Shown: positions 2,203 to 58,544, counted from the stretch's first letter. The stretch is DNA of 62,653 nucleotides from Candidatus Uhrbacteria bacterium (GCA_018701105.1 JABIWD010000051.1:1-62653), one strand, 5' to 3'. The notes: generated from the sequence alone by a model not told the origin. Numbers and translations: made by a program.

Positions 2203-2228
2203 GCGACCCCCACAGCTGTGGAGGTCGC
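2203..2228 (-). terminator. Rho-independent terminator of the GC-rich 274-aa gene
   Basis: The minus strand reads GCGACCTCCACAGCTGTGGGGGTCGC followed by ATTTTTGTTAT. It lies 10 nt after the stop at 2238. Confidence 0.6.
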
Positions 2229-2237
2229 TCGTCTTCT

Positions 2238-3062
2238 CTACCGAGGCTGCGTGCGAGCGACCTCGAAGGTGTCCTTGGCGCCCTTGACCACGAAGTGCGA
2301 CCCGGTCTCATTCAGAGCGCTGGGAATCTGCATGAACCCGCGTCGGTGCAGGAGCATGTTCCCCATCGAGGTCTCTTCGACCATCAGACGCCGATCCTCC
2401 TCGACGGTCAGCTCTCCACCGTGCACGAAGTTGCGCTTGCCGCAGTTCTCGTGTCCCGCAACTCCCACCTGCGCGGTCGGACAGTCCATGTCGCTCAGGA
2501 ACTGCCAGATGTTGGCGATCACGACGTCCCGGTCACGACGCTCCCGAGGCAGGCTGCCACCGAACGTACCATCGGGTCCCGGCATACGAAGCAGCCGTGT
2601 GTGCTCGATGTCGGCCAGGAGCTCCATGAGGTCCTGCAGCCGAGGATCCACGCACAACGCGATCACCTTCTTCACCGGTGCAGCGGCCGCTGGGATCAGC
2701 ACGTTGTGCTGTCGGATCTCGAGCTGCGCGCTCTGCGGCATCGCAGAGCGGAAGACCGCGAGCATCTGGTCCTGAATCGCTCGCGACACGACTCCCTGGA
2801 ACGGAAGCACGAGGTCCAACACTGTGCAGCTGTGAAGCGTCAGGCACTCACCGTACCAACGCCTCACGAGGTCTGCCATCTTGCCGCCCCTGTCGAGCGC
2901 CATGAAGGGCTTGTGCACCGCGATGGTGTCCACCTCTCCCAGCTCCCCCTCTGCCGTCATTCCGGCCATCCACTCCTGCAACACCAACGGCGGCAGAGCC
3001 ATCGGGCTCACGACCACCGACTGCGGGACTTCTGCTCCCGCTCCTGTCTTACTGCTCATCAA
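2238..3062 (-). CDS. GC-rich hypothetical protein, 274 aa; the C-terminal half is a paralog of the adjacent CxDxR/HxxCG protein
   Basis: Contains ALCVDPRL and GHENCGK motifs colinear with the 140-aa neighbour. The ATG at 3059 is preceded by AGGGG. The stretch is visibly GC-rich with multiple shadow ORFs. Confidence 0.6.
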   Translation of the reverse strand: MMSSKTGAGAEVPQSVVVSPMALPPLVLQEWMAGMTAEGELGEVDTIAVHKPFMALDRGGKMADLVRRWYGECLTLHSCTVLDLVLPFQGVVSRAIQDQMLAVFRSAMPQSAQLEIRQHNVLIPAAAAPVKKVIALCVDPRLQDLMELLADIEHTRLLRMPGPDGTFGGSLPRERRDRDVVIANIWQFLSDMDCPTAQVGVAGHENCGKRNFVHGGELTVEEDRRLMVEETSMGNMLLHRRGFMQIPSALNETGSHFVVKGAKDTFEVARTQPR

Positions 3063-3122
3063 CGCACCCCTGTCTTGGTTTCACGCCCGGTTTTGGACGA
3101 TTGGAAAAAGCCTAGTCCTATT

Positions 3123-3599
3123 TTACCGCTTTGTCAAACGTTTCCTTTCAAACGCGCGCAAAGCCGCTTTTTTTACTGGATAATCTGGGCAATGCATCGC
3201 AACCAGGTTCCAAAAAGCGCGCGAATGGTTTAATTCTACGGTATGAGCGAGTTCGTGAATGATCACGTAGTCGATGACGGCGGGATCGAGCTTTACGAGC
3301 TCTAGGTTCAGGCTCAAGTGCTTCTTTGAGCTACAGCTTCCCCATATCGTTGTTTGACGACGAAACGAGACCTTGTGTACATCCCATCCGGTAACCTCGG
3401 TAAGGATTCGGACGCGCTCGGTCAAATGTCGCTTTGCCTCTCGCTCGGTCCACCGCAGTAACGTCGACAATACGTGTGCGTCGTCATCTCTCAGATCAAC
3501 GACACACAACTTGTCACTCTCTAACCAAAGCATCCGGTCGTCAAAGACCGGAATGCGATTTAGTTGATATGTAACTCCAAGGTGTTCGAGCTCCTGCAT
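3123..3599 (-). CDS. YgjP/DUF45-like (SprT-like, M48-type) metal-dependent hydrolase
   Basis: WGSCSSKK motif and HELAH (HExxH) in the ORF translation. Confidence 0.75.
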   Translation of the reverse strand: MQELEHLGVTYQLNRIPVFDDRMLWLESDKLCVVDLRDDDAHVLSTLLRWTEREAKRHLTERVRILTEVTGWDVHKVSFRRQTTIWGSCSSKKHLSLNLELVKLDPAVIDYVIIHELAHTVELNHSRAFWNLVAMHCPDYPVKKAALRAFERKRLTKR

Positions 3600-3616
3600 A
3601 CCGTATAAACTCGTCC

Positions 3617-4150
3617 TTACTGTAACTTAAGCTCAGCGAACACCTCCTCGGGTGTGATGTCACTTCCCTCTGCAGTATAAAAGAATATTTCAAAAAGCAA
3701 GTCATCCGTCTTCCAGTACCACGCATCGAACACATTCCCTCTTCGTACGCCCACGTTTCGTCCATCGATCTCGATAAGCTCTAGATCAGGCGGCATGAGG
3801 GCCTGTTCTGGGTATACCAGCACATCAAACAAAACCCAATCATCTCCATCGTAGTAATCCAGATCGTCTCTACTCTGCCGATTTGGCAACTCAATTGGCT
3901 GATCTACGTTCTGGAAGAATGTCTTGGCCTCTTGTCGTGCAGTCGTGCGCTCCTTCCCTACTCCAAAGTCGCTACGAATACCGTCATACGGCTCATATGC
4001 ATACCAATCATCCTTCTCACCGGTAAGGTACCACTCAGTAGCACTAAACTCAGGCTCATCAACAACCTCACTCAAACCCTCCGGCGTCTTTGCCGCGCAA
4101 CCTGCTCCAATTACGAGCAACATGCCGAACATCATCATCAATTTCTTCAT
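3617..4150 (-). CDS. Hypothetical lipoprotein
   Basis: N-terminus MKKLMMMFGMLLVIGAGC has a signal peptide with a lipobox Cys. Confidence 0.7.
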   Translation of the reverse strand: MKKLMMMFGMLLVIGAGCAAKTPEGLSEVVDEPEFSATEWYLTGEKDDWYAYEPYDGIRSDFGVGKERTTARQEAKTFFQNVDQPIELPNRQSRDDLDYYDGDDWVLFDVLVYPEQALMPPDLELIEIDGRNVGVRRGNVFDAWYWKTDDLLFEIFFYTAEGSDITPEEVFAELKLQ

Positions 4151-4151
4151 A

Positions 4152-4895
4152 TTATTTCATTACGATTCTATCTATAAATTTCCATGGTATTGAGTTGACG
4201 TCATCCATGTCGACGGCATCCTCAACGAGCCCTTCTAGTACTTCACTGGTATCAACATATCTTGCTTGATACCTGCGAATCCTTGTTATGAAATCCTTCT
4301 TGTCGATCTCGGAATGGAACTGCGTCACGTAGAACGGCTTCCCGTTCACCTTGAATGCATGATACGGACACCCTTCAGAACGAGCAAGTAATGTAACGTT
4401 ATCAGGTAACTTTGTCGCACTATCCTTATGAAGCGCGACGGCCCTGAAGGTTTTAGGCATGTCATGAAACAATGGATCGTTCCCTGCGTCTGAAATAACC
4501 TCGATCACCCCCGATCCGTACAACTCTGCATATTCTTCACTCCGTTCAACTTTACCTCCGAGCGCTTCTACTGCAAGCTGAAATCCATAACATGACCCAA
4601 GCACCGGGATATTTTGCTCAAAGCAGTGTACGAGTAATCTTTCTGCATCTGTTATAAATGGAAACTTGTCCAAATCAAGGACATCGGCATCGCTAGATCC
4701 ACCAACAAACAGAGCGTCATACCCATCGATGATGTCAGGATCGAAACTAGGAACATCAAATAAGTTTATTGCGTCTAGCTGATCGTCATTCAACTTTCCA
4801 AATCTCACAAACTCTGCACGCTCCTCCGACAATGTCGGTGCATCATCCCTTGCTTGAATCAGTAATATTTTCAATTCATCACGTTGTTTCAACAT
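4152..4895 (-). CDS. Class I glutamine amidotransferase-like protein
   Basis: GSCYGFQL nucleophile elbow and a downstream QFHSE His-Glu pair. Confidence 0.8.
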   Translation of the reverse strand: MLKQRDELKILLIQARDDAPTLSEERAEFVRFGKLNDDQLDAINLFDVPSFDPDIIDGYDALFVGGSSDADVLDLDKFPFITDAERLLVHCFEQNIPVLGSCYGFQLAVEALGGKVERSEEYAELYGSGVIEVISDAGNDPLFHDMPKTFRAVALHKDSATKLPDNVTLLARSEGCPYHAFKVNGKPFYVTQFHSEIDKKDFITRIRRYQARYVDTSEVLEGLVEDAVDMDDVNSIPWKFIDRIVMK

Positions 4896-5484
4896 ATTCT
4901 TTCAATTTCTCAAAGTCCGTCAGAAGCTCACCGTACCTAGTTCTATTATAAACCGCAACTGCAGGGTGAAATAAGGGCAATATAGTTACCGACTTCCCAT
5001 TGATCTCCGTGACAAACGTATTACCTCGCGTTTCCGTTATTGTGCCAAGTTTTTCCTCGAGCCCGTAGCGCTTCATAATGTACTCCATCGAGAACCTTCC
5101 AAGTGTCGCGATTACGTTTGGTGCGATGATGTCGATCTGGCGATCCAGGAACGGAGCATACAGCTCAATCTCCTCAGGCTTTGGATCACGGTTCTTTGGC
5201 GGTCGATCTTTTACTACGTTTGTTACGTAAACCGTTGATCGATCTAGTCCGATGTCCGCTAATAGTTTATCGAGAATCTTTCCTGAAGCTCCACAAAATG
5301 GAAGCCCTGTTTCCGCCTCCTTTTTTCCGGGCGCTTCTCCGATAAACAAAACATCAGCGTTGACGTCGCCCTCGCCAATAACGCACTGCGCATCATTCGC
5401 AATACGATCTGCATAAAACGGCGATATTTCAAGCTGCTCGAGCTCAGTCAATATTTTCTTCATCGATGCACTCATACGTGACAT
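4879..5484 (-). CDS. Uracil-DNA glycosylase, family 4
   Basis: FIGEAPGKKEAETGLPFCGASG motif typical of family-4 UDG. Confidence 0.85.
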   Translation of the reverse strand: MSRMSASMKKILTELEQLEISPFYADRIANDAQCVIGEGDVNADVLFIGEAPGKKEAETGLPFCGASGKILDKLLADIGLDRSTVYVTNVVKDRPPKNRDPKPEEIELYAPFLDRQIDIIAPNVIATLGRFSMEYIMKRYGLEEKLGTITETRGNTFVTEINGKSVTILPLFHPAVAVYNRTRYGELLTDFEKLKEYVETT

Positions 5485-5527
5485 ATTAGCACATTTTTGC
5501 TACATTATATTCAAGAAAGGAGGCCAC

Positions 5528-5785
5528 ATGCAGCACGCTGGCGGTACGATTCGATTCATGCGCGATCCGAAAACTGGAGACCAGCTTGCATCGCTGGTCG
5601 TCTACAAGTTCGGGACACTCAACTTCAAATGGGCAGATCCAAGCAGGCCTCTCATGAGGACGCTTGGTGAAGGGCTCAAAATCACTGTGACACACATTGG
5701 GGGCACGCGATATCGATGCGTGGTCGAAAACGCATCTGTGATCCTGCACGAGAACGTGCTCGAACTGATCGCGATCCCCAGCTGA
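5528..5785 (+). CDS. GC-rich orphan protein, 85 aa
   Basis: AAGGAGG lies 4 nt upstream of the ATG, and a private hairpin terminator follows. The opposite-strand 116-aa ORF looks like a shadow. Confidence 0.5.
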   Translation: MQHAGGTIRFMRDPKTGDQLASLVVYKFGTLNFKWADPSRPLMRTLGEGLKITVTHIGGTRYRCVVENASVILHENVLELIAIPS

Positions 5786-5792
5786 ACTACAA

Positions 5793-5826
5793 AGCACCCC
5801 ACCGTTCAGGCGAGGTGCTGTTTTAT
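5793..5826. terminator. Hairpin terminator between the 85-aa cassette and the MBL-fold gene
   Basis: AGCACC ... GGTGCT stem followed by GTTTTATT. Confidence 0.55.
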
Positions 5827-6599
5827 TCTTTTCCAAGCATCCTTAGAAACAAGAGACCCGTTGTCTTACGTGGTAACGTCTTCTTGTTGATCGTGATAGA
5901 AGTTCTTTTCAGCGTCTTTCCGGAATACTCTTTATTCAGGGCATTTGCATTTTGCAGCAAGGTGGCAAGTTCCATGAAGCTAGTACTGTCTTCATATCCC
6001 GGACCTGTGCTTGCGTACCTCTTGAAATACCGCACAAAGAAGGCTCTAAACTTTTTCCCATCATCAAACCCCGGCATCTTGTCCGGAACGATATGGTGAG
6101 CCCATACAACCAACTTTGGCCTCAGCGCTTGGATGTTCTGCCTTACGTGATCAAGTGAAGTATCATTCTTTACTTTGGGCGCTGACATAAAAATAATATC
6201 AACCTTACCGATCTCCTTTAACTGCTTCTTTGTTAGCTTGTGTGCATTGTCTCCGAAATGAGCCAGCCTCACTCCGTCGATAGTATAGTTCCATGCAATA
6301 TTCAAGTCGCCGTTCCACTCGTATATCACCGTCCCCTTTAAATCAAGCTTTGGGAAAGGGTCAGAGTTCACGCCTGTCTGCGGTGCGGTTTGCAACCAAC
6401 CACCCGGCGCATATGCATGATCCGCATCCGGTTCTGACATCAAAACCAAATTAGCCCCAAAAGCTTTTCCTTTAAAAGTTTTTGGAAACTTGGGACCAAG
6501 CGCCCATTCAGGTGCATCATTGTAAGGGTCAACGACTATGCGATAACCCTCGTCATTTTCAATAAGAAAACATGATAATCCTAGGAAGTGTATTTTCAT
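5823..6599 (-). CDS. MBL-fold metallo-hydrolase-like protein
   Basis: N-terminus MKIHFLGLSCFLIENDEGYRIVVDPY and an SEPDADH segment resemble the UlaG/MBL fold. A TAGAAT -10 box lies 6 nt from the ATG. Confidence 0.6.
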   Translation of the reverse strand: MKIHFLGLSCFLIENDEGYRIVVDPYNDAPEWALGPKFPKTFKGKAFGANLVLMSEPDADHAYAPGGWLQTAPQTGVNSDPFPKLDLKGTVIYEWNGDLNIAWNYTIDGVRLAHFGDNAHKLTKKQLKEIGKVDIIFMSAPKVKNDTSLDHVRQNIQALRPKLVVWAHHIVPDKMPGFDDGKKFRAFFVRYFKRYASTGPGYEDSTSFMELATLLQNANALNKEYSGKTLKRTSITINKKTLPRKTTGLLFLRMLGKE

Positions 6600-6673: not shown

Positions 6674-7855
6674 TTACTCTCTCCCAAACAATCGCTTCAA
6701 CCAGCTCTTCTTAGGTATCGGCGCTGCATCCCTAGCCTTAACGGCGCGTTCAGCTGCCCGATAACGTGCAGTATCTGCTTCGTTCTGCAATATCCCTGTC
6801 GACCTTCTCCCATCTACACCTCCATGTGACCTATCGTCTGATGGAGAATGTGCATCTGAGCCATCTATATATTGTAAGAACTCTGGCGCCATTTGTTCAA
6901 TACCCTCCCTTTCAACGAACTCACTAACATGGTCAAGTATTGCTTCTGGAGTATTCGCATCTGTATTATCCAAGCTGTGAAGTTCACCCATTACCATCAA
7001 TGCACCTTCCTTAGACCGGCCAATATCAATACCTTCCTCATTCACAACTAGACGATAGCCAAACGATTCCCAAAACAGTAATACGAGATTCGCATTAATC
7101 TGACCAAAGTGATATTGGGTACCCTCTAAAAAGCTATCAAAGTCTACATTCCCCGGCATATGCAATACCTCGGGCATCGTCCTGTACAGCCGCTTTAACT
7201 CTTCGCTTTCTATTGGGCGTTCAAGTGTTCTTTTGGTATCTACGGTATAACTCCCGGCCTCACCATTCCATGATGCGTCCTGCTCACCATACCGCTCATT
7301 CACAAGAGCCTGAAGCCGCTCATCCTTACTAAGCAGATCGATCACTGCATGATCAGTGTCCCCGGATCCCCCAAGCGCTATGTCAATTGCCCTGACGTTC
7401 TCCAGGAAACCATCGTCAACACCTGCCAAAGCTTTCAGGTCTTCAATCGCGGCTTCGGCATCACCCCTCTCTTGACCGAGTAAAACGTCTACACGACCAG
7501 CAACGACAATGTCATACTCTTCCCGATCAAAATTCCAACTAACAGAAACATCTACTCCATTGATTCTGCCGCTCATATCGAGCGTTGTGTCATACATCGC
7601 ATCTTGTTTCCAGCCCGAGTTACCATCTGTGCCAATAATGTCCCTCACTGACTCAACGCCTGTCTCGGGATTTGGCATCTCTCTGAACGAGAGATGATTG
7701 TTATCATCAAACATCCAATCTCGCTCACTGACCTCCGCGGCTTCAAGGTCAGGAAGACTGTCGGCTTCTTTGTTAGGCAAACTAAACAATGCTTCCGCCC
7801 GTCCCAATGCCGCCTCCCTGTGGCCATATCCACCTCCATCAACTCGAGGTTTCAT
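6674..7855 (-). CDS. Acidic hypothetical protein, 393 aa
   Basis: Long ORF with its own extended -10 promoter. No recognisable motif. Confidence 0.7.
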   Translation of the reverse strand: MKPRVDGGGYGHREAALGRAEALFSLPNKEADSLPDLEAAEVSERDWMFDDNNHLSFREMPNPETGVESVRDIIGTDGNSGWKQDAMYDTTLDMSGRINGVDVSVSWNFDREEYDIVVAGRVDVLLGQERGDAEAAIEDLKALAGVDDGFLENVRAIDIALGGSGDTDHAVIDLLSKDERLQALVNERYGEQDASWNGEAGSYTVDTKRTLERPIESEELKRLYRTMPEVLHMPGNVDFDSFLEGTQYHFGQINANLVLLFWESFGYRLVVNEEGIDIGRSKEGALMVMGELHSLDNTDANTPEAILDHVSEFVEREGIEQMAPEFLQYIDGSDAHSPSDDRSHGGVDGRRSTGILQNEADTARYRAAERAVKARDAAPIPKKSWLKRLFGRE

Positions 7856-20566: not shown

Positions 20567-20595
20567 TTGACAATTTGCAATTTTTGTGGGATTGT
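20567..20595 (+). promoter_or_regulatory. Putative promoter TTGACA-17 nt-GATTGT upstream of the GC-rich 362-aa gene
   Basis: Perfect -35 box but a weak -10 box. Confidence 0.3.
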
Positions 20596-20707
20596 CAGCC
20601 CAGTACGTAAATGGCTCGGAGAGGTTTAGCCCGTAAGGGGCGACATCTTGATGAGTGACCTCTGCTATACAGGGCATACGTCCTGATGGCTTGGAGGGGT
20701 GATAGAA

Positions 20708-21793
20708 ATGCAGGTTACAGTAGAAGAGAGATGCAAGCTGTGTGTCGACGAAGCAGACCTGAGCGAAGGAACGCTTTCTGGCGAGATCGCCAAGGTCATG
20801 GGCATAGTCGCAATTACCGGAATCGCCATTGCCTTCTGGGCGTGGTTCGCTTCGGCCTTTGGCTGGAATCGTGAAGCTGTCCCCGCGGGTGTTTTCGCGG
20901 TACTCTCCACGGCCTTCGCTGTCTTTGGTCTGAAGTGGCTCCTCCTCGGGAGATACGTGTACGAGTTCGTCACCGAGGACGGCAAGGGTCACATGCATCG
21001 CTACGACGGAAGTCGGATCAAGGATCTGCTTCTTCGCGACGGTGCGAAGGACTATGTTGTGAAGCGACGTCTGAATGGGCTCTTCGGGTCCAAGGGAGAG
21101 GTCTGGCGCCACGTTCGAGGCGGCAGGTGGGTTGATGCTGCCTGGCGTGTAACAAGAAGCTGGGGAAAGAGGTTCGACCTCACGTACGGCTCGGAGGATG
21201 ACCAGGGGCTGCCTCTCGAGGACGTCGACATCATTGGTGCAACGCGCATCATGCGTGACGACGAATTCATGAACTGGCAGCAGCTCGTGAGCATCCTCGA
21301 TGCCCGTGACGAGCACAAAGCAAACCTGCGAGTCCTTCGTATAGAGCACGAAGGGCTCATAGCTCGGTCCAGTAGGCTGCAGACCGAGATCAAGGAACTC
21401 GGGCTCTACAAGACCGAAACAGCCAGGCTTCAGGACCTGCGTAACGCGATGATCGTCAACATGGTCGACTGGCTCATGGATCTGCTGAAGCAACATCACA
21501 TTGTTGACGCAGACGACCTTCGTCGCTACTACGCGATCGTGAATGCTCTTCTGGAGCTCAAGACGACCGATGATCAGACCGCCATCGTCGAGGCCCTGGA
21601 GCGCGCCGAGACCCTGGAGTGCATCGCAGACCTAGCGCCCAAATCTCAGGGGGTGCTCGCCACGGGATTCCTGAGGAATCTCGAGCGCAAGATGAAGCAA
21701 GCCGTGCTCGATCCCGGGGATCTGGTGGCCGATGCTTGGAACAAGGGTCTGAGTATCCAATTCCGATGCATCGCAGAGGGAAAGCAGCGATAG
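20708..21793 (+). CDS. GC-rich orphan membrane / coiled-coil protein (about 361 aa from the ATG at 20708; the ORF track starts at GTG 20699)
   Basis: GGAGGGG lies 8 nt upstream of the ATG. Two TM helices (IVAITGIAIAFWAWFASAF and VFAVLSTAFAVFGLKWLLL) are followed by a helical C-terminal half. Confidence 0.55.
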   Translation: MQVTVEERCKLCVDEADLSEGTLSGEIAKVMGIVAITGIAIAFWAWFASAFGWNREAVPAGVFAVLSTAFAVFGLKWLLLGRYVYEFVTEDGKGHMHRYDGSRIKDLLLRDGAKDYVVKRRLNGLFGSKGEVWRHVRGGRWVDAAWRVTRSWGKRFDLTYGSEDDQGLPLEDVDIIGATRIMRDDEFMNWQQLVSILDARDEHKANLRVLRIEHEGLIARSSRLQTEIKELGLYKTETARLQDLRNAMIVNMVDWLMDLLKQHHIVDADDLRRYYAIVNALLELKTTDDQTAIVEALERAETLECIADLAPKSQGVLATGFLRNLERKMKQAVLDPGDLVADAWNKGLSIQFRCIAEGKQR

Positions 21794-21809
21794 AGAACCG
21801 GACAACGAA

Positions 21810-21840
21810 ACGGCGACCCGCTCTGGGTCGCCGTGTTTTT
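21810..21840. terminator. Bidirectional hairpin terminator
   Basis: ACGGCGACCC-GCTCT-GGGTCGCCGT followed by GTTTTT. It lies between the 362-aa gene and the pepA stop. Confidence 0.7.
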
Positions 21841-28064: not shown

Positions 28065-28093
28065 TTGATATTTTTGTCGATTTGATGTATTCT
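28065..28093 (+). promoter_or_regulatory. Promoter TTGATA-17 nt-TATTCT for the GC-rich 214-aa gene
   Basis: Followed by GAAGGAGGG 4 nt before the ATG at 28113. Confidence 0.5.
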
Positions 28094-28112
28094 CTCGCGA
28101 GAAGGAGGGCCT

Positions 28113-28757
28113 ATGCCCAGAATACCGGTGATGAGTTCAAAGGATCGGTACGCCGTACTGATCCTAGCTGCGCTGAAATACGGCGACGTCGATCCCACGA
28201 CGTTCGAGACAGACCTGAAGCTCAGTGAAGCGACAGGGTTGCGTGAAACACTGACCGATCAGGAGATCGGCGAGATGCTCCACGTGGCGAGCTACAGATT
28301 CGAAGCTGAGAGACTTGGGGACTTCAGTACGTTCGACCCCTCCGGGATCGACGAGGCTTTTGCCCAACGTCTAGCTGACGCTCTGCACAGGCAGTACATG
28401 CGTCTGCTGGTACTCGGCGGCAAGGACTTCGGCGATCACCTGCTTGCAGGGTCGAAGCACAAGGTGGAGGCTATCCGCGGCGGTGCACAGAGCACGTACC
28501 TAGGAGAGATGGCCGTAATCCTTCGTGCGGATGAGATCTTGCGCGGAAAGAAGGTGGTCAACCCGAATATCGCTGCCCTCATGTTCGGTGTAGACAGCGA
28601 TGCCGCTAGTCGGTTCTTCGGCGATCTGGAATACGGACGTCAGAAGATGATGGACGCCCTGGCCTGGAAGTTGCCGGGAATGCCCCCAAAAGCCGTGAAG
28701 CGAGTGCGACGCCGCAGCAAGGATCCCACATTCTGGATCCAGAGTCCCAACAACTAG
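28113..28757 (+). CDS. GC-rich orphan protein, 214 aa
   Basis: Strong SD, its own promoter and terminator. No recognisable motif. Confidence 0.55.
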   Translation: MPRIPVMSSKDRYAVLILAALKYGDVDPTTFETDLKLSEATGLRETLTDQEIGEMLHVASYRFEAERLGDFSTFDPSGIDEAFAQRLADALHRQYMRLLVLGGKDFGDHLLAGSKHKVEAIRGGAQSTYLGEMAVILRADEILRGKKVVNPNIAALMFGVDSDAASRFFGDLEYGRQKMMDALAWKLPGMPPKAVKRVRRRSKDPTFWIQSPNN

Positions 28758-28765
28758 ACACGAAA

Positions 28766-28797
28766 GCCCGCAGGACCTAGTCCTGCGGGCGCTTTTA
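28766..28797. terminator. Hairpin terminator
   Basis: GCCCGCAGGA-CCTAG-TCCTGCGGGC followed by GCTTTTATTTT. It overlaps the stop of the methyltransferase gene on the other strand. Confidence 0.7.
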
Positions 28798-30087
28798 TTT
28801 TCGATCTAAGATCACCAATCCCTCCATGTGCGGAGTTCGTGGGAAGAAATTGTACAGTCTTGAGAACACGATGTCGTAACTGTCCAACAGCAGGTCAACG
28901 TCACGAGACTGCGTCGACAAGTTACATGACAGATAGATCACTCGCTTCGGCTTCTTAAACAAGATCCGCTCAATCACCTTCTTATGCAACCCGGCGCGTG
29001 GTGGATCTACAATCAATATCTTGTCCGTTGAAATATATTCAGTCGCCTCCTCTGCAGTCGACAGTACGGCAACCGCGTTATCAACATGATTATCCTCGAT
29101 GTTCTGACGTGCGAAATCAGTTGCCTCATCATTGCTCTCCACCAACACAGCCTGGTTGTAATGCTTTGATAGTGGAAGCGAGATCGATCCGACTCCAGAA
29201 TAGAAGTCTACGATGTCGATCTTAGGGTCTAGGTATGTCGCGATATCTTCAACCGCTTTAGAGAATACCGGCACGTGTACCTGGAAGAAGCTCAACAAAC
29301 CAAACCGCAAACTCGTAGTCTTCACATCCATCACGAGACTCGACTCTCCAATACTGTAAAGTAGCTCGGTAGGAACGGACGCAGGGCTCTTTGGGTTCGA
29401 GAAGTAAACATGAAAACCAACGAGCGCGTCACTCAAAGGCTGCCACTCACTAACATCAACTCCTTTTTTCACAAACAACGCTGCTATCGCCTCCCCTTTT
29501 CCATTCGAGCGGACAATGAGCGACTTAAGGTCTACTCTATTCACCTCCTCGCGATTCAACCACTCTAAAATCTCATTCGCCACCTCGTTGATCACAGGCT
29601 CGGCTAACAAGGACCCGTCAACAGGAACTTTCGTATGTTTACCTCGTGCAAAGAAGCAAAGCTGCGTTGGCGAGTTGATATCTTTTGTGTAAAAACTGAA
29701 CTCCATCTTGTTTCGGTACCCAAACGCCATCTCGGTATCAGATACGATATCGAGCTCATTGAACGAGTCCTTTGCCCCTTCGTTCGATATACCGCGGCTA
29801 TAAGTCTCCTTCCCAATCTCAACCTTGTATCGATCCTCAGCCTCCATCGTCATCATCTGCCATGGGCTTGTTGAGAGATATGCATCTTCTTTTGGCTCAA
29901 TACGATCCTGTGATGCGCTCAAGATCTTTGTAGCAACACCCTCCACGATGCCTTTCTTCTTTTTTGTTACCTCAAACTCAACCTCTTCACCTGGAAGTGC
30001 ATTCCAAAGAAACAAAGCCTTACCCGTCTCCTCGTCACGTCCTAGTGCCTGCCCTCCGAATACGAGCTTTTCAATCTTAGTTTTCAT
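28795..30087 (-). CDS. RNA (uracil-5-)-methyltransferase, TrmA/RlmD (RumA) family
   Basis: N-terminal TRAM-like segment, DFYSGVGSISL SAM motif, and the VDPPRAG and YLSCN catalytic motifs. Confidence 0.85.
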   Translation of the reverse strand: MKTKIEKLVFGGQALGRDEETGKALFLWNALPGEEVEFEVTKKKKGIVEGVATKILSASQDRIEPKEDAYLSTSPWQMMTMEAEDRYKVEIGKETYSRGISNEGAKDSFNELDIVSDTEMAFGYRNKMEFSFYTKDINSPTQLCFFARGKHTKVPVDGSLLAEPVINEVANEILEWLNREEVNRVDLKSLIVRSNGKGEAIAALFVKKGVDVSEWQPLSDALVGFHVYFSNPKSPASVPTELLYSIGESSLVMDVKTTSLRFGLLSFFQVHVPVFSKAVEDIATYLDPKIDIVDFYSGVGSISLPLSKHYNQAVLVESNDEATDFARQNIEDNHVDNAVAVLSTAEEATEYISTDKILIVDPPRAGLHKKVIERILFKKPKRVIYLSCNLSTQSRDVDLLLDSYDIVFSRLYNFFPRTPHMEGLVILDRK

Positions 30088-37128: not shown

Positions 37129-37644
37129 ATGAAAGGATCGCGGAGGTCAATGTTGACATTCAGCTCTATTACGAGTAACTTCGAGACATCGCGAATGGAC
37201 GCGTGGAACACGAGGTTGCAAGTGAACGAGCGTATGGCAGCGTTGAGACTGAAGAAGGTGATTGGCAACCCACTGACAGTGGGACTGCTACTGGGTGCTT
37301 TGAACTTCCTGGCGATCGTCCTGATCAAGCCGAAGAACTACGCCATGGGAATCGCAACGTTGGCGATCTTTGGAGGAGTCATCTTCGTCGTGCAGCATGC
37401 GTGGATGAGCCTGTTCGTAGATACGGTCGTTGAGAAGGCGAGCGTGGTGATCACGCTCAGGCAAACTCTCGACTTCATCATCATCGGTGCCATCATCCTC
37501 CTGATGATCTTCGGTGGTCATCCCGACATGCTCTCAGGTCCCACTGCGCGATTCCGTTTCGTGACCCCCCTGATGAGCATCGCGGTCTGGGTTGGATACC
37601 TGACCATCTGGCTCTACACCAGAACACGTGATCGCGGCAAATGA
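37129..37644 (+). CDS. GC-rich orphan membrane protein (start ambiguous: 37129, 37150 or 37195)
   Basis: Four TM helices. GGAGG precedes the ATG at 37150. A TTGACA-17-TAACTT at 37153-37181 could instead drive a short-leader start at 37195. Confidence 0.5.
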   Translation: MKGSRRSMLTFSSITSNFETSRMDAWNTRLQVNERMAALRLKKVIGNPLTVGLLLGALNFLAIVLIKPKNYAMGIATLAIFGGVIFVVQHAWMSLFVDTVVEKASVVITLRQTLDFIIIGAIILLMIFGGHPDMLSGPTARFRFVTPLMSIAVWVGYLTIWLYTRTRDRGK

Positions 37645-37673
37645 TCGTCTCCCCACGACACAAACTGACAACG

Positions 37674-37699
37674 GCACCCGCTCGGGTGCTAGTTTTTTT
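37674..37699. terminator. Hairpin terminator GCACCC-GCTC-GGGTGC followed by a T-run
   Basis: Its sequence context, gacaacggcacccgctcgggtgc, resembles the terminator at 21802-21834. Confidence 0.65.
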
Positions 37700-54700: not shown

Positions 54701-55779
54701 ACCAAGTCAATTACATCTGTGTCCGCTGTAGCAGAATAACTAATGTAAACAGCGCCATTAGAAACCAACTCGGCAGCAGAGGCAGAGTACGAAGCGTCCG
54801 CAACCTCGTCTCCGTCTCCAGCGATAAAGTTACTTGGAGCAATGAGGAAGAATCCGTTCGGTGGGATTTGAGTGTTGAACATCGTCATCGCAACATTCGT
54901 ATCCGTTGACCCGTCCCAGAAATGGAGCTTAACGCCGGTCATGTCTACAGGAGTTGGACCATAGTTATAAAGCTCTACGAACTCGTCGGTGTCTGATGAG
55001 AGACTAGATACCCTAAACTCACTAATCTTAATACTCGGCAAAATAGTCACCGTTTCACCAGCGGACGCGTTTCCAAACAAATCAGTAACACTTGTCGTGA
55101 CCTGAACGGTGTTTCCCGATCCCTCGGCGATAACTGCTCCAGTTGCTTCCACGCCAATAGCATCGGAACCAAAGCCTGCTATGTCCGTAATAGTTGAGTC
55201 ATCTCCGCCGTCCGAAGTAGCAAGAACTACTGAGCCGGGACCGAACGAGTTCTCGTCTACGGGCTCGTCAAATGCTACAAAAACATTATTTATATCTATA
55301 CGTGCTATATCCTGAACGGCTGGACCAGTCGTGTCCTCTGCAATCGCCGTGTACACATTCACAGGAGAAGACGTGCAGGCCTCCATGTCACCATTCAATA
55401 CTTCGCCAGTTGCACAAGTAATTGTGAAATCTGTTCCACCTGCAGAGTTAAGGTTTCCAGACAACGTAATAATTGCATCCATGTCACCCGGACCATGGTC
55501 TACCGAACTGATAGAAATTGAGTTGGCACCAGCCACAGTAAAATCGGCAGCAACCAACGGTCCACCTTGACCATCATGAACTTGATCGTCGAAAGATACT
55601 ACTATTATATCCTGACCATCCTTCCATCCACCCATTGTGAAAACAGGCGCAGCTGCGCTCACAAAGAACGGTGACACCATCATGAAGGTGCTGAGAATAA
55701 ACATGAAAATGAGAACTGCTATTGCGGTTCTTTTTACGCCAATATCCCGCAATAAGCGGAACGCTGTAGTTCGTGACAT
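48709..55779 (-). CDS. Giant secreted or surface-anchored protein of about 2,356 aa, with LTD, SbsA-Ig-like, CarboxypepD_reg-like and Fn3-like segments (start at MSRTTAF; the ORF track extends to 55911)
   Basis: Signal/anchor AIAVLIFMFILSTFMMVSPFFVSAAAP. LTD-like SEFRVSSLSSDTDEFVELYNYGPTPVDMTGVKL. Ig-like segments P(T/I)V..S.P.DGA. Repeated ISGTVTD...G...V segments. Fn3-like VGYELYRD...YYYKVTASD. The upstream extension crosses a terminator hairpin at 55880-55900. Confidence 0.85.
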   Translation of the reverse strand: MSRTTAFRLLRDIGVKRTAIAVLIFMFILSTFMMVSPFFVSAAAPVFTMGGWKDGQDIIVVSFDDQVHDGQGGPLVAADFTVAGANSISISSVDHGPGDMDAIITLSGNLNSAGGTDFTITCATGEVLNGDMEACTSSPVNVYTAIAEDTTGPAVQDIARIDINNVFVAFDEPVDENSFGPGSVVLATSDGGDDSTITDIAGFGSDAIGVEATGAVIAEGSGNTVQVTTSVTDLFGNASAGETVTILPSIKISEFRVSSLSSDTDEFVELYNYGPTPVDMTGVKLHFWDGSTDTNVAMTMFNTQIPPNGFFLIAPSNFIAGDGDEVADASYSASAAELVSNGAVYISYSATADTDVIDLVGWGTSTKKEGTALADITGGQNLERLAVAGADANSMTGQGGDVFDGNGSDSQDNSIDFVIQATAVPQNSFSLPEFAGGAAFNENGDQTPPTVTDSFPDAASAAFIPQEFASAGLSFSEQMDPGTIDTTSVLLVVDTDQGTNLCQSISYDPAATFGAQVTCNIDPSALPLASVPHTFAATMGVTDFSGNGLASDYTVGFTPSSAFSFSSQAIPEMVGAYPGPNTSSYPPNSGFININFNQELDSSTLAGNVTLVNTTQSTSETITGMQLLSIVDPNDAIELDVSGVSFTAGEDYLVTITTGVTSSDGVALAADVQIPFTVADSNDNTAPIVIASNPSDGATGVDVGMPIVFISIDDALDASTVTTSSVALYEGFAAIPATVSYNSNFREIEIFSEVVFQPSTEYTVVIGGAGAGAAVSNVSGTELADTDGYGPADTTHNIKFTTGAADVTAPTASFASATQNKIDVTFAEGMLGSSIENLANWSLESPVGSSVPLSAMAGIDASWDPSTMTASLGGISLTDGASFEITAGVGIKDMAANPLGSPAVLGGTVLDVAIYGSSGPGAGFTGNEWDLPAAFDDGTFGFVPQAGVWPMNGMAGMVSSYNVDFPISEQIRANGNGGKVVMTFPTGFDVTGASFDSTNPMNSDSNGPGVGIFAVNSVTANAAARTVTVDFTGATRCGAGNTDPCVSDDEQDFIGMSISGIVNSSVPRDWETAGYTVDIKTMTSGTLLETMTSMPFFINAAGANSLAVTVTAGSQNSGGFDVHISSPTTGEMTQTLDFSNNLNGTEVATFTGLPEDYYDVWTEPLVLSDAYQGIMSEQAWVTGSATGSYTLTGTSGFQLVTINVSGTTGKDIDVIASGSRGFQVQRIQNTSGSDQVTMNLPDGDWNFDIGPHMDMSGGFTMPEPPDYKVTPRWLPVNVANPNVTEDSDTADDGTLEFVLSAAAFTVPVSVVDTSGNPIVDAMVFMDDTTAGFGTFGQTATTGIASLGIDAGTYRVGAFMQGAPPTGEITVKVAGNGDIFQDGSDVATLTVVLELSKSDTVISGTVTDGTSAVGGAGVHAFCTANCEGYFDAGTMSDTNGGYTLYVGNGTWNVEAFIPGYGPTGQTTVAVSNADQTGINLEPDTNATFRIISGTVCKKDGGAGDCSSGSNLEGLAGIEVFAYSQAAGGGSNFTQTASDGTYSLRVPGTTGYTVEAWDHRAGPLPMLSSVDTSSGNATTQDIVIGTPLGVTVNIEDGASGAVVLEEMYIELFDDSTGIRQNLFIENDSSGSIDLPPGDYDMFVHTMSAPIDPATDVAGAGGTVVSTGVLTVDSAETVTVVVPALNTVTGQLTDGANPVADAWVEVSDPTLGIFMGTTTDSSGNYSIEAPVGSYQVNAYSPGLVLDAVTLAVTGAETLNLAGSTADQTISGTVTDLNGNAVPYAFIEGIEDSGRRTAVQADADGEYELAVDDGDWSLTANGYGYQPEMVASSVGISGAPATSQNIQFTAVEAGLSDPTVTTLTPSEGGMASDATLGLSVTVPSNATGTSTSAGSLTMKETNNVVDTATTSVVGNGFEVSMVDNGGTQLTSGFTEPVSIGKTMTVAELNTAGITLATEVDGLTMSYYDGGNGTWVPETTTTVFLDGSGNVVASPASNLSDVTSVRFSTAVDHFTVFSITAPSDGVAPAAPAGVAAVGATSGNTVSWTAVTTNSDASAISDLVGYELYRDTSSGGSYSTQVNGSDILTTSYEDTTATAGTLYYYKVTASDTGGLESSKSSAVSATRTTASSGGGGGSAPRVWSDQGTDDTDEVVADDASPELISEVQPDAVSDEADTVLGITRDSEGRRVAPASGVEGASPLDGSLEPVSTVSAGQFVRSYAFDTVYYVDEDMKRRPFWDARSFFTWGTDWDDIVWVTDATLSTMSLSVPMLPQPGHVLVKIESDPKVYAIEADPTDPAKDILRWIPSEAVANNIYGSAWADYIIDIEPTVYIRYTTGLDIALGESVDTSGIQTRVQISAN

Positions 55780-55879
55780 ATTTAATTTTGTTACGGATCT
55801 TTTATGAGTGCATTGTATCTTATTTTGGACGAGGATACTTAATGTACATGGGGATAAACTATCTGCACGTAACAAAAAC

Positions 55880-55900
55880 GGCCATCGCAGAACGATGGCC
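55880..55900 (-). terminator. Terminator after the PLDc_N-domain gene
   Basis: The minus strand reads GGCCATCG-TTCTG-CGATGGCC followed by GTTTTTGTT. Confidence 0.65.
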
Positions 55901-55921
55901 GTACCAAGCATTAACTTTAGT

Positions 55922-56750: not shown

Positions 56751-56779
56751 TTGACAGATTCTAAATTCTGTGGTAATCT
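56751..56779 (+). promoter_or_regulatory. Promoter TTGACA-17 nt-TAATCT
   Basis: cccTTGACAgattctaaattctgtggTAATCTctc, about 100 nt upstream of the ATG at 56879. Confidence 0.5.
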
Positions 56780-56878
56780 CTCAACAATGCAGAAACGAGA
56801 TAGGTAACTGATCATAGTCCTCGTGTCCCCCGGATACGAGAAATGTGACGGGTTACTTACTACCCTTGGGAGATCGCC

Positions 56879-57169
56879 ATGCGCCGCTACGTCCTTTTTG
56901 TCCACTGCGACGCCGCCGAGAAGCTCCCAAGGTCGCGAGACCTGACCCCCGACTGGCTTTCTCTGGGTGCGCCTTCTGCGCCCCGCGAGATGCGTGCCTG
57001 GCACGACCGGCGCGTTCGCGTGCTGGGCCGAGGGGATTGTGGAGCGATCCTCGGGCGTGTGAGGGAACTGTTCGGCCAGGAGGCCGTACCTGACATCGTG
57101 ATGGCGATGGTACAGCTGCAGCGTGAAGCTGCAGAGGTCCAGGAGATCCTCGAGATCTCCTACGCATGA
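56879..57169 (+). CDS. GC-rich orphan protein, 96 aa (strand assignment uncertain)
   Basis: GGGAGA lies 5 nt upstream of the ATG, with an upstream promoter and a downstream terminator. Hand-counted GC3 is 74%, GC1 75% and GC2 46%, so codon statistics cannot exclude the antisense 151-aa ORF (56726-57181). Confidence 0.35.
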   Translation: MRRYVLFVHCDAAEKLPRSRDLTPDWLSLGAPSAPREMRAWHDRRVRVLGRGDCGAILGRVRELFGQEAVPDIVMAMVQLQREAAEVQEILEISYA

Positions 57170-57319: not shown

Positions 57320-57366
57320 GCCGCGACCTGGAGGCCGAAGCAAAGTGCTCCAGTTCAGGTCGCGGC
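57320..57366 (-). terminator. Long compound hairpin after the YARHG gene
   Basis: GCCGCGACCTG...CAGGTCGCGGC with an inner CTGGAG/CTCCAG pairing, followed on the minus strand by ATTGTGTTTTGTG. Confidence 0.6.
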
Positions 57367-57372
57367 GAGTGG

Positions 57373-57870
57373 CTACTTTGCGCAGCCGTGCCTCTTCTCG
57401 AGGGCTTGGATGTAGTTGCGGGTTGCGACATCTTGTTCGTTGAGCTTCACCGTCTTGTCGGTGACGCTCGGGTCGCGCAGGTACCAGCCATTCGGGCCGG
57501 CATACTCCTTGGTGTACTGCTGAACCCACACCTGTGCCCTCCTGGTACGGAAGGCGTAGTTGTGGCCAACGTAGATTGCGTTCCGGATCTGCCAGAGCAC
57601 GTCGCAACGCACCTCCGGCTCAATCTCCAGGTACGCCTCGAACGAGTCCTGGAACGGGATCTGCTCGTGCTTTCGCGCGTGCTCGACCAACTCCTGGGCG
57701 TACACCTCGGGACGCTCGCAGGCCTGCGCGTTGGCGTAGAAGCCACAGGCAAGGATCACGAGTGCGAGGATCTGGATACCGAGGAGGACAATCAGCCCCC
57801 TGATCAAGTTGCTGCTGAGGAGGCCTCGAATCAGGCCAGTAGGTCGCTCTCCGTTAGTCTGCTGGGCCAT
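57373..57870 (-). CDS. GC-rich membrane-anchored protein with a YARHG-like domain (start at MAQQTN; the ORF track extends to 57969)
   Basis: AAAGGAG lies 5 nt upstream of the ATG at 57870. TM segment LIVLLGIQILALVILACGF. IRNAIYVGHNYAFRTRRAQVWVQQY...GWYLRDPS...LNEQDVATRNYIQALE fits the YARHG pattern. Confidence 0.6.
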   Translation of the reverse strand: MAQQTNGERPTGLIRGLLSSNLIRGLIVLLGIQILALVILACGFYANAQACERPEVYAQELVEHARKHEQIPFQDSFEAYLEIEPEVRCDVLWQIRNAIYVGHNYAFRTRRAQVWVQQYTKEYAGPNGWYLRDPSVTDKTVKLNEQDVATRNYIQALEKRHGCAK

Positions 57871-57940
57871 GTCGGCTCCTTTAAATCCCTGTTCTGTCAT
57901 CAAACTCGTGCTGGGATATACCCGAGTTCTTCGTGTTCCG

Positions 57941-57969
57941 TTTATACCAAGAAAATGGCCTTTTGTCAA
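57941..57969 (-). promoter_or_regulatory. Promoter TTGACA-17 nt-TATAAA for the YARHG gene
   Basis: The minus strand reads ccTTGACAaaaggccattttcttggTATAAAcgg. Confidence 0.55.
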
Positions 57970-58015
57970 GGTAAGGAGGTGTCAGTTTGGCTAAGGTAAG
58001 CCTCATAAAATCAAC

Positions 58016-58036
58016 GGCCCCGCCAGAAGCGGGGCC
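58016..58036 (-). terminator. Terminator of the 139-aa gene
   Basis: The minus strand reads GGCCCCGC-TTCTG-GCGGGGCC followed by GTTGATTTTAT. Confidence 0.65.
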
Positions 58037-58053
58037 GAGGAAGAGGTTCGGGA

Positions 58054-58473
58054 TCAGTGCCAGTAGAGCACGACCGGCGTATCGGGGTCGATGGCCCCGA
58101 AGTACGCCAGCATCGCCTCGGGGTACCTGTGCTCGACAGGATCCCCGAATGCATAGTGCAAATCGAACACGATGAGATCACCCGCGGCTACGTAGGAGAT
58201 CACGCCGTTCTTTTCCGTCACCGGTGTCTCTCCGAAGAAGACCTCCCAGTCAGACGGTAGTTGTGTCCCCTTCGATCGCTCCAGGTCTTGAATACCCTCC
58301 TTGAATTCGTCACCAGGTGTACGCACGTAGAACGTCGACAGAGTGAAGACGTGAATTTCGCCCGTGCTCATCTGGTATGGATCGACAACCAACAAAGTCA
58401 GTTCCGTGCCCAAGGGCAGCTCCTTAAGTGGAATCACCAAATATCTATTTGCTTGTACCACGAATCTGAGCAT
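58054..58473 (-). CDS. Moderately GC-rich orphan protein, 139 aa
   Basis: ORF with a downstream terminator. No SD, and no motif recognised. Confidence 0.5.
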   Translation of the reverse strand: MLRFVVQANRYLVIPLKELPLGTELTLLVVDPYQMSTGEIHVFTLSTFYVRTPGDEFKEGIQDLERSKGTQLPSDWEVFFGETPVTEKNGVISYVAAGDLIVFDLHYAFGDPVEHRYPEAMLAYFGAIDPDTPVVLYWH

Positions 58474-58544
58474 TTGTCAATACTATTAATACAAAAACGA
58501 TCAACATAATCGTTGATCGTCCTGTGCACTTTTCTCAGCAAGAC

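Follow-up and report, generated by a model that had tools for sequence, protein, structure and literature searches.

We analyzed a 62,653-nucleotide (nt) stretch of DNA from a Candidatus Uhrbacteria bacterium (GCA_018701105.1 JABIWD010000051.1:1-62653), referred to here at its full length as the window. Eight open reading frames (ORFs) rich in guanine plus cytosine (GC) stand in it as cassettes, each in a backbone of lower GC content. The original prediction, made from the sequence alone, had read these cassettes as repeated single-gene acquisitions from a high-GC donor or as an unrecognized cassette-type mobility. Our analysis favors another reading, to which we assign a probability of about 60%. 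The cassettes would form an old, maintained class of stand-alone accessory genes in a marine Uhrbacteria-like Patescibacterium with a genome of ~0.93 Mb, and their composition would be held by selection. Each would be a single-gene transcription unit placed in a slot between conserved housekeeping genes, and most would be old, vertically inherited residents under purifying selection. Repeated recent acquisition from a high-GC donor did not hold for the five cassettes that are conserved in relatives, and the three variable cassettes are compatible with it.

Composition and expression signals of the cassettes

The backbone reference set comprised 58 genes, and the gene set was consistent with the JGI gene calls. 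The GC content of the whole window was 47.9%. Backbone genes had a GC content of 46.7% (standard deviation [sd] 2.9) and a GC content at third codon positions (GC3) of 0.491 (sd 0.050, maximum 0.605). As had been predicted, the eight ORFs were GC-rich against this background (GC, 54 to 65%; GC3, 0.64 to 0.83). All were compositional outliers, with GC3 z-scores of 3.0 to 6.7, and the weakest was 5528-5785. The long ORFs found in several frames of these stretches are shadows, as the prediction had supposed; the noted frames displayed the pattern of real coding DNA, in which GC content is lower at second codon positions than at first and third positions (GC1>GC2<GC3).

Compared to the backbone, the codon usage of the cassettes was shifted to C- and G-ending codons, in agreement with a check that the prediction had proposed. 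Within their codon families, TTC reached a share of 0.92, TAC 0.87, CAC 0.88, and ATC 0.75. C and G each occupied 0.37 of third positions in the cassettes, compared to 0.20 and 0.29, respectively, in the backbone. The amino acid composition was near that of the backbone, save for more Arg and Leu. The GC excess was uniform along each coding sequence (CDS) and ended at its borders. Upstream flanks of the cassettes had 35 to 51% GC, and backbone intergenic DNA had 38%. Dinucleotide relative abundances of the pooled cassettes deviated moderately from those of the backbone (delta* of 76; null, 41±13), with biases in the same direction (CC/GG low, GA/TC high, TA low), which is consistent with long residence. 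Rfam and transfer RNA scans of the window were both empty; thus, no RNA gene lies behind any of the GC peaks.

Two of the starts given originally were revised. For the 2238 gene, the ATG at 3059 replaces the start at 3062. For 37129-37644, GTG 37222 is the probable start because the promoter falls inside the noted ORF and a relative is frameshifted upstream. The eight cassettes, with lengths in amino acids (aa), are as follows.

Cassette 1, 2197..3137 (-): CDS 2238-3059, 273 aa; GC 0.636, GC3 0.81 (0.815 for the ORF 2238-3062); -35 box TTGACA 3132-3137; -10-like TAGGCT 3109-3114; Shine-Dalgarno-like GGGGTG 3065-3070; terminator 2197-2228.
Cassette 2, 5478..5824 (+): CDS 5528-5785, 85 aa; GC 0.547, GC3 0.640; GTGACA 5478-5483; TACATT 5501-5506; Shine-Dalgarno AAGGAGG 5517-5523; terminator 5794-5824.
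Cassette 3, 20567..21840 (+): CDS 20708-21793, 361 aa, two membrane segments and a coiled coil; GC 0.576, GC3 0.699; TTGACA 20567-20572; leader of ~130 nt; Shine-Dalgarno GGAGGGG 20693-20699; terminator 21812-21840.
Cassette 4, 28065..28801 (+): CDS 28113-28757, 214 aa; GC 0.577, GC3 0.698; TTGATA 28065-28070; TATTCT 28088-28093; Shine-Dalgarno AAGGAGG 28102-28108; terminator 28766-28801.
Cassette 5, 37153..37699 (+): CDS with probable start GTG 37222 and end 37644, ~140 aa, four membrane segments; GC3 0.73 (GC 0.539, GC3 0.721 for the ORF 37129-37644); TTGACA 37153-37158; TAACTT 37176-37181; Shine-Dalgarno GAGGT 37212-37216; terminator 37674-37699.
Cassette 6, 56751..57169 (+): CDS 56879-57169, 96 aa; GC 0.646, GC3 0.732; TTGACA 56751-56756; TAATCT 56774-56779; leader of ~95 nt; weak GGGAGA 56868-56873; no clear terminator.
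Cassette 7, 57320..57969 (-): CDS 57373-57870, 165 aa, N-terminal membrane anchor; GC 0.606, GC3 0.825; TTGACA 57964-57969; TATAAA 57941-57946; Shine-Dalgarno AAGGAG 57876-57881; terminator 57320-57366.
Cassette 8, 58007..58473 (-): CDS 58054-58473, 139 aa; GC 0.543, GC3 0.686; terminator 58007-58036; no Shine-Dalgarno; starts directly after the terminator of a 61-aa gene, 58545-58730.

Five of the eight plus-strand genes in the window are cassettes, as had been noted. The description of several cassette products as membrane proteins held for the three with membrane-spanning segments and not beyond them.

Exact TTGACA boxes in the correct orientation were located 60 to 140 nt upstream of five of the eight cassettes, where about 0.26 such sites are expected by chance (Poisson P of ~8e-6), and TTGATA and GTGACA stood at two more. 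Weak -10 boxes followed 17 nt after the -35 boxes (TAGGCT, TATTCT, TAACTT, TAATCT, TATAAA, and TACATT). Shine-Dalgarno cores of at least 5 bases with proper spacing (AAGGAGG twice, AAGGAG, GGAGG, and GAGGT) preceded 5/8 cassettes, compared to 6/58 backbone genes (P = 0.002), which bears out the observation that most backbone genes have no Shine-Dalgarno. We counted the eight cassettes and the neighboring 61-aa gene 58545-58730 as nine stand-alone units; hairpin-plus-T terminators followed all of these except 56879-57169 (8/9, versus 11/57 backbone genes; P = 1e-4). The cassettes thus appear to be self-contained transcription units whose promoters, Shine-Dalgarno sites, and terminators are unlike those of the backbone, as originally proposed. 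The individual signals that had been listed were mostly recovered, the exceptions being 58054-58473, which has no Shine-Dalgarno, and 56879-57169, which has no clear terminator.

About half of the backbone genes carry a near-consensus TATAAT or TAGAAT ending 5 to 35 nt before the ATG, without a Shine-Dalgarno, which implies that leaderless or very short-leader mRNAs are probably the backbone default. Examples of this short-distance -10 box lie upstream of 4879-5484, 5823-6599, 8369-9757, 18565-19821, 25072-26139, and 32684-33295. Among the cassettes, only 5528-5785 has a nearby -10-like box (TATATT, 16 nt from the ATG). Two expression grammars may therefore be told apart by their signals. A cassette would comprise a -35 TTGACA promoter, a weak -10, a 40- to 130-nt leader with a Shine-Dalgarno, C/G-ending codons, and its own intrinsic terminator. 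A backbone gene would have TATAAT or TAGAAT 5 to 35 nt from the ATG, a leaderless or short-leader mRNA, no Shine-Dalgarno, and a GC3 of ~49%.

Inheritance and turnover of the cassettes in relatives

The closest named genomes were a Candidatus Uhrbacteria metagenome-assembled genome (MAG) and "Patescibacteria group bacterium" MAGs. Relatives of three grades were collinear with the window, and the backbones of the close and intermediate grades shared 70 to 90% nucleotide identity with it. The close lineage (L021-L032 and L035-L043, from NCBI, ENA, Logan, and TARA assemblies) had 84 to 90% nucleotide identity, and the intermediate lineage (L001, an Uhrbacteria relative) had 70 to 81%. The distant lineage was FLOH01000012.1 (976 kb; loci L033 and L044), called FLOH01 below, with a further distant fragment, L050. 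The backbone codes for ATP synthase, MetRS, type IV pilus proteins, a 2,400-aa surface protein, and many domains of unknown function, a gene content typical of the candidate phyla radiation; the genes flanking cassettes also include those for an M17 peptidase, TrmA, and UppS. A marine planktonic habitat is suggested by TARA-named contigs and gene records. A more distant locus of mixed GC, L046, was dropped as a further case since its GC-rich genes are housekeeping genes (DisA, RadA, ClpC, and LysRS), which indicates a different, GC-richer organism.

Five of the eight cassettes (2238, 5528, 28113, 37129, and 56879) were found in the close lineage in the same slot and orientation and with the same GC3 excess. 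The 2238 cassette occupied the slot between YgjP and Pro_CA_2 in L027-L032, with 86% aa identity (GC 0.630, GC3 0.79). It was present in the same slot in FLOH01 (L033/L034) at 29% aa identity, with a GC of 0.612 and a GC3 of 0.78 over a backbone of 48%. The 5528 protein, whose slot adjoins UDG, was 98% identical in L027-L032 (GC3 0.66). At this slot FLOH01 (L033) has a 90-aa ORF (GC3 0.615) that matches the 5528 gene in placement and orientation; its upstream region and Shine-Dalgarno are conserved, and its product is only weakly similar to the 5528 protein. The 28113 cassette, between TrmA and DsbA, showed 68% aa identity in L021-L026 and L043 (GC 0.606, GC3 0.72) and 41% in the same slot of L001 (GC3 0.75), and its orthologues keep promoter, Shine-Dalgarno, and terminator. 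The orthologue of 37129, L021:19967-20419, lies in the UppS|GIY-YIG slot (GC 0.552, GC3 0.75) with an AGGAGG Shine-Dalgarno, and a homologue of 56879 with 97% aa identity adjoins the PLDc_N gene in L035-L042 (GC 0.639).

The expression signals were conserved as well. Across orthologues, the -35 box, Shine-Dalgarno, and terminator were retained while the intervening leaders diverged. For the 2238 gene, the window sequence reads TTGACA-N17-TAGGCT with GGGGTG and that of FLOH01 reads TTGACA-N17-TAGTTT with AGGAGG; AAGGAGG precedes the 28113 gene in all three of its lineages. FLOH01 has other GC-rich cassettes (a 379-aa gene, a 462/148-aa paralogue pair, and a tandem 135/137-aa pair), which carry TTGACA promoters, GGAGG-type Shine-Dalgarno sites, and terminators; in its backbone, a Shine-Dalgarno was present at 1/16 genes. 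Over the window and six related loci, a Shine-Dalgarno core preceded 11/18 GC3-rich ORFs versus 31/200 others (P = 5e-5, with orthologues counted repeatedly).

We then compared substitution rates with those of the backbone, where the synonymous divergence (dS) from the close lineage was mostly 0.2 to 1.0, centered near 0.5, and the ratio of nonsynonymous to synonymous divergence (omega) was 0.01 to 0.10. The corresponding dS and omega values were 0.32 and 0.26 for 2238, 0.22 and 0.07 for 5528, 0.64 and 0.32 for 28113, 0.70 and 0.34 for 37129, and 0.16 and 0.10 for 56879. In three of these five cassettes, the protein evolved 3 to 10 times faster than its neighbors. A dS equal to or below that of the flanks indicates co-inheritance with the backbone and not import of divergent alleles, and an omega below 1 indicates real, constrained proteins. 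Together, these sequence comparisons show the five conserved cassettes as vertically inherited genes under purifying selection. The proposed synteny check, run on these relatives, thus spoke against recent import for the five, which have the same gene, composition, and site across the lineage.

The other three cassettes vary among relatives. The 20708-21793 cassette was absent from L001 and L021, which have 124 and ~27 bp, respectively, in place of ~1.35 kb. In the empty AhpC|M17 slot of L001, a TTGACA still stands right after the AhpC terminator, the place of the cassette promoter in the window; this suggests that cassette 3 may have been lost from L001 by deletion rather than gained in the window. 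In FLOH01, this slot is occupied by two GC-rich genes, of 462 and 148 aa. The longer product has the orientation and architecture of cassette 3 (two membrane helices followed by a coiled coil), and the two aligned collinearly (Smith-Waterman z = 5.7, with 0/300 shuffles scoring as high). The TrmA|DsbA slot of FLOH01 holds a GC-rich gene without similarity to the 28113 protein. Cassettes 57373-57870 and 58054-58473 were absent from the close relative, whose synteny with the window ends at position 57292 and which has a 413-aa gene of 45.8% GC in their place. The exact 57373-57870 protein was present in two other independent assemblies, and no homologue of 58054-58473 was detected in any relative locus compared. 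Gain, loss, or replacement cassette by cassette, as the prediction had envisaged, therefore does occur, given these three absences and the other genes in the FLOH01 slots.

No mobility element was found to account for this turnover. In agreement with the original observation, we found no integrase, transposase, or target-site duplication. Integrase domains were absent from the 40 backbone proteins scanned and from the JGI Pfam tables. An all-against-all comparison of cassette flanks revealed no attC-like sites, shared repeats, or terminal inverted repeats, only private terminator hairpins. The 20708 insertion junctions, compared to L001 and L021, had no duplication beyond "ATTT" and no terminal repeats. 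Over longer times, cassettes might instead be lost, gained, and replaced in their slots when DNA taken up by the cell recombines homologously with the conserved flanks, which would be the simplest mechanism.

Two arrangements in FLOH01 concern duplication. At L044 1347-2411, a tandem duplicate GC-rich cassette (135 and 137 aa) has near-identical promoters, Shine-Dalgarno sites, and terminators, and the 462-aa/148-aa pair at L044 18497-20594 has paralogous C-terminal regions (z = 15). Cassettes can thus duplicate in place.

Several single genes specific to the window are not GC-rich: 6674-7855 (-), 59011-61164 (-), and 26310-26678 (-). The first encodes 393 aa and has no counterpart between MBL and atpC in L027. 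For the 717-aa protein of 59011-61164, a search of 5.8 billion proteins returned only itself and no homologue. A query that joined 6674-7855 and 59011-61164 likewise gave no relatives among metagenome contigs. The third gene, DoxX, is missing in L021. Flux of single genes thus extends beyond the GC-rich cassettes. L001 has a low-GC insertion of its own (37 to 40%; 785 bp, 16510-17295), with a 188-aa ORF bracketed by palindromic GGGACGGCCGTCC copies, which is absent from the window at ~15580.

As originally reported, none of the eight proteins has a recognizable function: sequence searches of Pfam, NCBIfam, PHROGs, PADLOC, and PDB gave no significant match for any of them. Viral contigs (four cassettes) and plasmids (two cassettes, by tblastn) gave no significant match either. 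With the 2238 protein as query, HMMER returned five hits from an exhaustive search of 1.84 billion representative proteins; the three informative ones were syntenic copies in relatives, and two were weak repeat matches to very long proteins. The 28113 protein, used as query in a word-indexed search, recovered itself and a close orthologue and nothing else. For these two proteins, the ones searched individually, no donor-like homologue of the kind expected from a high-GC donor was found, and the cassette proteins may accordingly be described, as far as these two go, as lineage-restricted families whose donor is not visible. The 57373-57870 protein had a subthreshold match to YARHG PF13308 (20.5 bits, with a cutoff of 27; E = 4.7e-4). 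AlphaFold models built from alignments of 3 to 4 rows were of low confidence (mean predicted local distance difference test score of 42 for 2238 and 38 for 28113).

In the C-terminal half of the 2238 protein, which carries CxDxR...GHxxCG motifs, C136-V-D-P-R, P160-G-P, and H203-E-N-C-G are invariant in four homologues. The 67-residue spacing from Cys to His equals that of CxDxR...HxxCG in the Pro_CA_2 protein encoded immediately downstream (1681-2103). The 2238 protein had no Pfam hit at an E value of ≤1, and hhalign against the neighboring Pro_CA_2 orthologues was not significant (probability of 0.55%; E = 0.1). We raise as a hypothesis that this half could be a distant paralogue of its Pro_CA_2 neighbor.

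Origin and maintenance of the GC-rich codons

Backbone synonymous sites were saturated against the distant relatives (proportion of synonymous differences, pS, of 0.6 to 0.85). At identical amino acids, the same codon was used with a frequency of 0.49 for 2238 (window versus FLOH01), where independence gives 0.43, and of 0.44 for 28113 (window versus L001), where independence gives 0.37; backbone genes had an equally small excess of codon identity against the distant relatives. Codon memory over both lineages is then about 10% [(0.49-0.43)/(1-0.43) = 0.105]. Under a two-state GC/AT model, the deviation in GC3 decays per lineage to about the square root of that memory, ~0.3, with an upper 95% bound of ~0.55. 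On this model, the GC3 excess of +0.30 seen today would require a starting excess of 0.5 to 0.9, and the possible maximum is 0.51 over a backbone of 0.49. Passive decay, even from 100% GC3, was calculated to leave ~0.6 or less. For the 2238 gene, passive amelioration is thus very unlikely; for the 28113 gene, it would take the extreme bound.

Cassette GC3 stayed at 0.70 to 0.81 in every lineage even at this near-saturated synonymous divergence, so the high GC is not a vanishing trace of recent arrival from a GC-rich donor. Genes unrelated to the window cassettes in the same FLOH01 slots were equally GC-rich. Fast-evolving or replaced backbone genes were not, as seen for 30446-30721 (34% identity) and 4152-4895 (67%). 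Relaxed constraint alone was rejected as a cause on the same ground. In L050, the YgjP slot retains only a 75-aa remnant of the 2238 N terminus, with a GC3 of 0.54 over a backbone of ~0.40. Its excess is less than half of the usual one, as expected if the excess depends on a functional gene. Taken together, the codon comparisons show the cassette GC3 of 0.64 to 0.83 as a gene-specific steady state and not as an unameliorated relic.

Selection at synonymous sites could hold the steady state, in connection with translation of a GC-rich monocistronic mRNA that depends on the Shine-Dalgarno. GC-rich, structured mRNAs would need a Shine-Dalgarno, and the default initiation of the cell would rely on unstructured AU-rich starts. 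The cassettes led by a Shine-Dalgarno could in this way form a condition-specific gene set. We put forward such synonymous-site selection for a separate, Shine-Dalgarno-dependent expression mode only tentatively, and we regard it as somewhat doubtful. Single-gene horizontal transfer, which has been documented among Patescibacteria (PMC12455944), may well be how the class arose and how its slots refill.

Several explanations do without maintained composition. Repeated, fairly recent acquisition of single genes that have yet to ameliorate, from a host or another high-GC donor, would account for the foreign-looking composition and expression signals and for the absence of three cassettes from the closest relative, and it draws on the same documented transfer in Patescibacteria (PMC12455944). 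It is refuted for five of the eight cassettes: relatives carry them in synteny and just as rich in GC, and for two of them this holds where divergence is saturated. In addition, cassette dS is not above that of the backbone, the two cassettes searched gave no homologues beyond the clade, phages and plasmids yielded no hits, and a promoter remnant at the empty L001 slot suggests loss rather than gain; we consider this account unlikely in general. Old transfers that predate the split of the clade, from a donor very rich in GC and followed by slow amelioration with nothing maintaining the composition, are rather unlikely. They would predict equal GC3 among lineages, given equal time since a shared acquisition; the upper confidence bound on codon memory for 28113 just allows a donor GC3 of ~0.9 or more, and the L050 remnant shows that decay is possible. 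However, with a memory of ~10%, the excess should have fallen to about a third or less, and 2238 is still at +0.30. Nor would such transfers account for the equal GC-richness of unrelated cassettes in FLOH01 slots or for the ordinary composition of the fast-evolving backbone genes 30446-30721 and 4152-4895, and the conservation of Shine-Dalgarno and -35 boxes while leaders diverge places the foreign-looking grammar itself under selection.

Alternatively, the slots could be recombination hot spots in which GC-biased gene conversion or a local mutational bias enriches the GC of whatever occupies them. Slots in which different GC-rich genes replace one another fit this idea, as does the GC3 at the 3' ends of four flanking genes, which is ~0.10 above the rest of the gene; five other flanking-gene ends showed little or no rise. 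The excess is sharply confined to the CDS and strongest at third positions, with leaders and promoters at 35 to 51% GC. Strain-specific insertions elsewhere (6674-7855, 59011-61164, DoxX, and the L001 188-aa ORF at 37 to 40% GC) are not GC-rich, the most stable cassettes (5528 and 56879) are, and cassette dS is not raised, all of which makes hot spots quite unlikely. A different possibility, which we rate as highly improbable, is that the cassettes are written for another expression machinery, either that of a GC-richer partner cell after DNA or RNA transfer or a dedicated subset of ribosomes that read the Shine-Dalgarno. The partner-cell version would be a bacterial analogue of the genes of transferred DNA (T-DNA) and is purely conjectural as to transfer. 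If true, it would explain the long retention by selection of -35 boxes, Shine-Dalgarno sites, and GC-rich codons in a genome with no other use for them, and the loss of the GC excess in a truncated copy. Finally, GC-rich DNA does yield many long shadow ORFs, and a chimeric assembly of GC-rich reads had been named as a risk. We give such artifacts practically no credence: assemblies of different samples (NCBI, ENA, Logan, TARA, and JGI) show the same cassettes with the same surroundings, recurrence in six or more independent assemblies excludes a chimera, and omega below 1, conserved motifs, and the GC1>GC2<GC3 pattern of the chosen frames refute the rest.

A number of points weigh against an old class maintained by selection. 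The data comprise ~60 kb of genome and ~20-kb pieces of relatives, individual homologue searches in large protein sets covered two cassettes only (2238 and 28113), and few codons (72 and 82) underlie the saturation arguments. Recent arrival is still conceivable for three of the eight cassettes. The FLOH01 462-aa gene may be homologous to cassette 3, though the case from the alignment is weak. An Akashi-type test gave a nonsignificant trend, with a GC3 of 0.83 where residues are conserved and 0.77 where they vary in one comparison and of 0.73 and 0.69, respectively, in the other. The ATP synthase genes have an average GC3 without the bias of the cassettes, and ordinary translational selection for high expression was rejected on this basis. 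Lastly, a subgroup of Parcubacteria is without the anti-Shine-Dalgarno motif in the 16S rRNA (PMC9297842).

Known systems and neighboring genes

The defining features of the closest analogues, phage morons and compositional transfer islets, fail for the cassettes. Phage "morons," reported by Juhala, Hendrix, and colleagues in 2000, are said to be autonomous promoter-gene-terminator units of deviant base composition between two phage genes. By sequence evidence, the cassettes resemble them as single genes with their own promoter and terminator between otherwise adjacent conserved genes, with a composition unlike that of the flanks, and with presence or absence between collinear genomes (cassettes 3, 7, and 8). 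Unlike morons, they lie in a cellular housekeeping chromosome and not in a prophage, have no PHROG or viral matches, and are for the most part anciently conserved and stationary in composition.

Compositionally atypical, horizontally acquired genes were reportedly modeled in terms of amelioration by Lawrence and Ochman in 1997, and Medigue et al. are said to have described "class III" codon-usage genes in 1991. The cassettes share with such genes an outlier GC3 and codon usage, proteins without relatives, and an accessory character. They differ in being GC-richer, not AT-richer, than the host genome, and contrary to what the amelioration model predicts, they are syntenic across saturated lineages without converging on the host composition. 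The replacement-type flexible genomic islands of marine bacteria, in which, as reported by Rodriguez-Valera and colleagues, the same locus holds different genes by strain, offer another parallel. The AhpC|M17 and TrmA|DsbA slots and the 57- to 59-kb region also hold different genes by lineage, in marine planktonic genomes. In contrast to such islands, the cassettes are single genes and not multigene glycosylation clusters, their turnover is slow, and the occupants share one composition and expression grammar.

The rpsU gene of Flavobacteria is a Shine-Dalgarno-led exception in a Shine-Dalgarno-poor genome, where the site serves autoregulation. Like rpsU, the cassettes are a few genes with a strong, conserved Shine-Dalgarno in a genome whose bulk translation ignores it; unlike rpsU, they are lineage restricted and also distinct in codon composition and promoter type. 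They differ from integron cassettes in that they have no shared attC-type repeat, no integrase was found, and they are scattered with their own promoters and form no tandem array. They differ from transposons and miniature inverted-repeat transposable elements in that no terminal inverted repeats, target-site duplication, or transposase was found.

Genes of outlying composition are commonly taken for recent horizontal transfers, and predictors of genome islands would mark all eight of these. If composition is maintained here, base composition can be a property of a gene class and not a clock of arrival. GC-rich codons, Shine-Dalgarno leaders, and -35 promoters in an otherwise Shine-Dalgarno-less genome would point to two coexisting expression modes in an ultrasmall bacterium, with a bearing on translation initiation in Parcubacteria, part of which lost the anti-Shine-Dalgarno. 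The eight cassettes are also a defined candidate set of condition-specific or partner-interaction genes.

Some neighboring genes were recorded in passing. Adjoining cassette 8, 58545-58730 (-) encodes a 61-aa protein with Cys and His (MKTLKCDLCDAT...) and has its own terminator. The window copy is not GC-rich (GC3 0.55); its homologue at L035 7238-7438, 64 to 68% identical, has a GC3 of 0.70. Directly downstream of cassette 5, 37698-37997 (-) is a stand-alone gene for a 99-aa GIY-YIG nuclease domain protein of normal composition, conserved in L021, for which no link to cassette mobility was found. Upstream of cassette 3, a near-palindrome at 20504-20534 (TATAGGTCAGATAGG / CCTATGGGACCTATA) stands after the AhpC stop codon and before the AhpC terminator, is present in L001 too, and could be an operator-like site.

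The GATase gene 4152-4895 (-) is 67% identical to that of the close relative, with saturated synonymous sites, and its neighbors are 93 to 96% identical. The 91-aa membrane protein of 30446-30721 (-) is 34% identical to its counterpart there. Recombination with a divergent lineage seems to have replaced the alleles of both genes. Type IV pilus genes (PilC and pilins) form a cluster at 44 to 47.5 kb, followed by 48709-55911 (-), which encodes a giant surface-type protein of ~2,360 to 2,400 aa (Big_5, CarboxypepD_reg, and LTD). This protein is 85% identical in the close relative, which carries an extra 346-aa gene between the giant gene and the PLDc_N gene.

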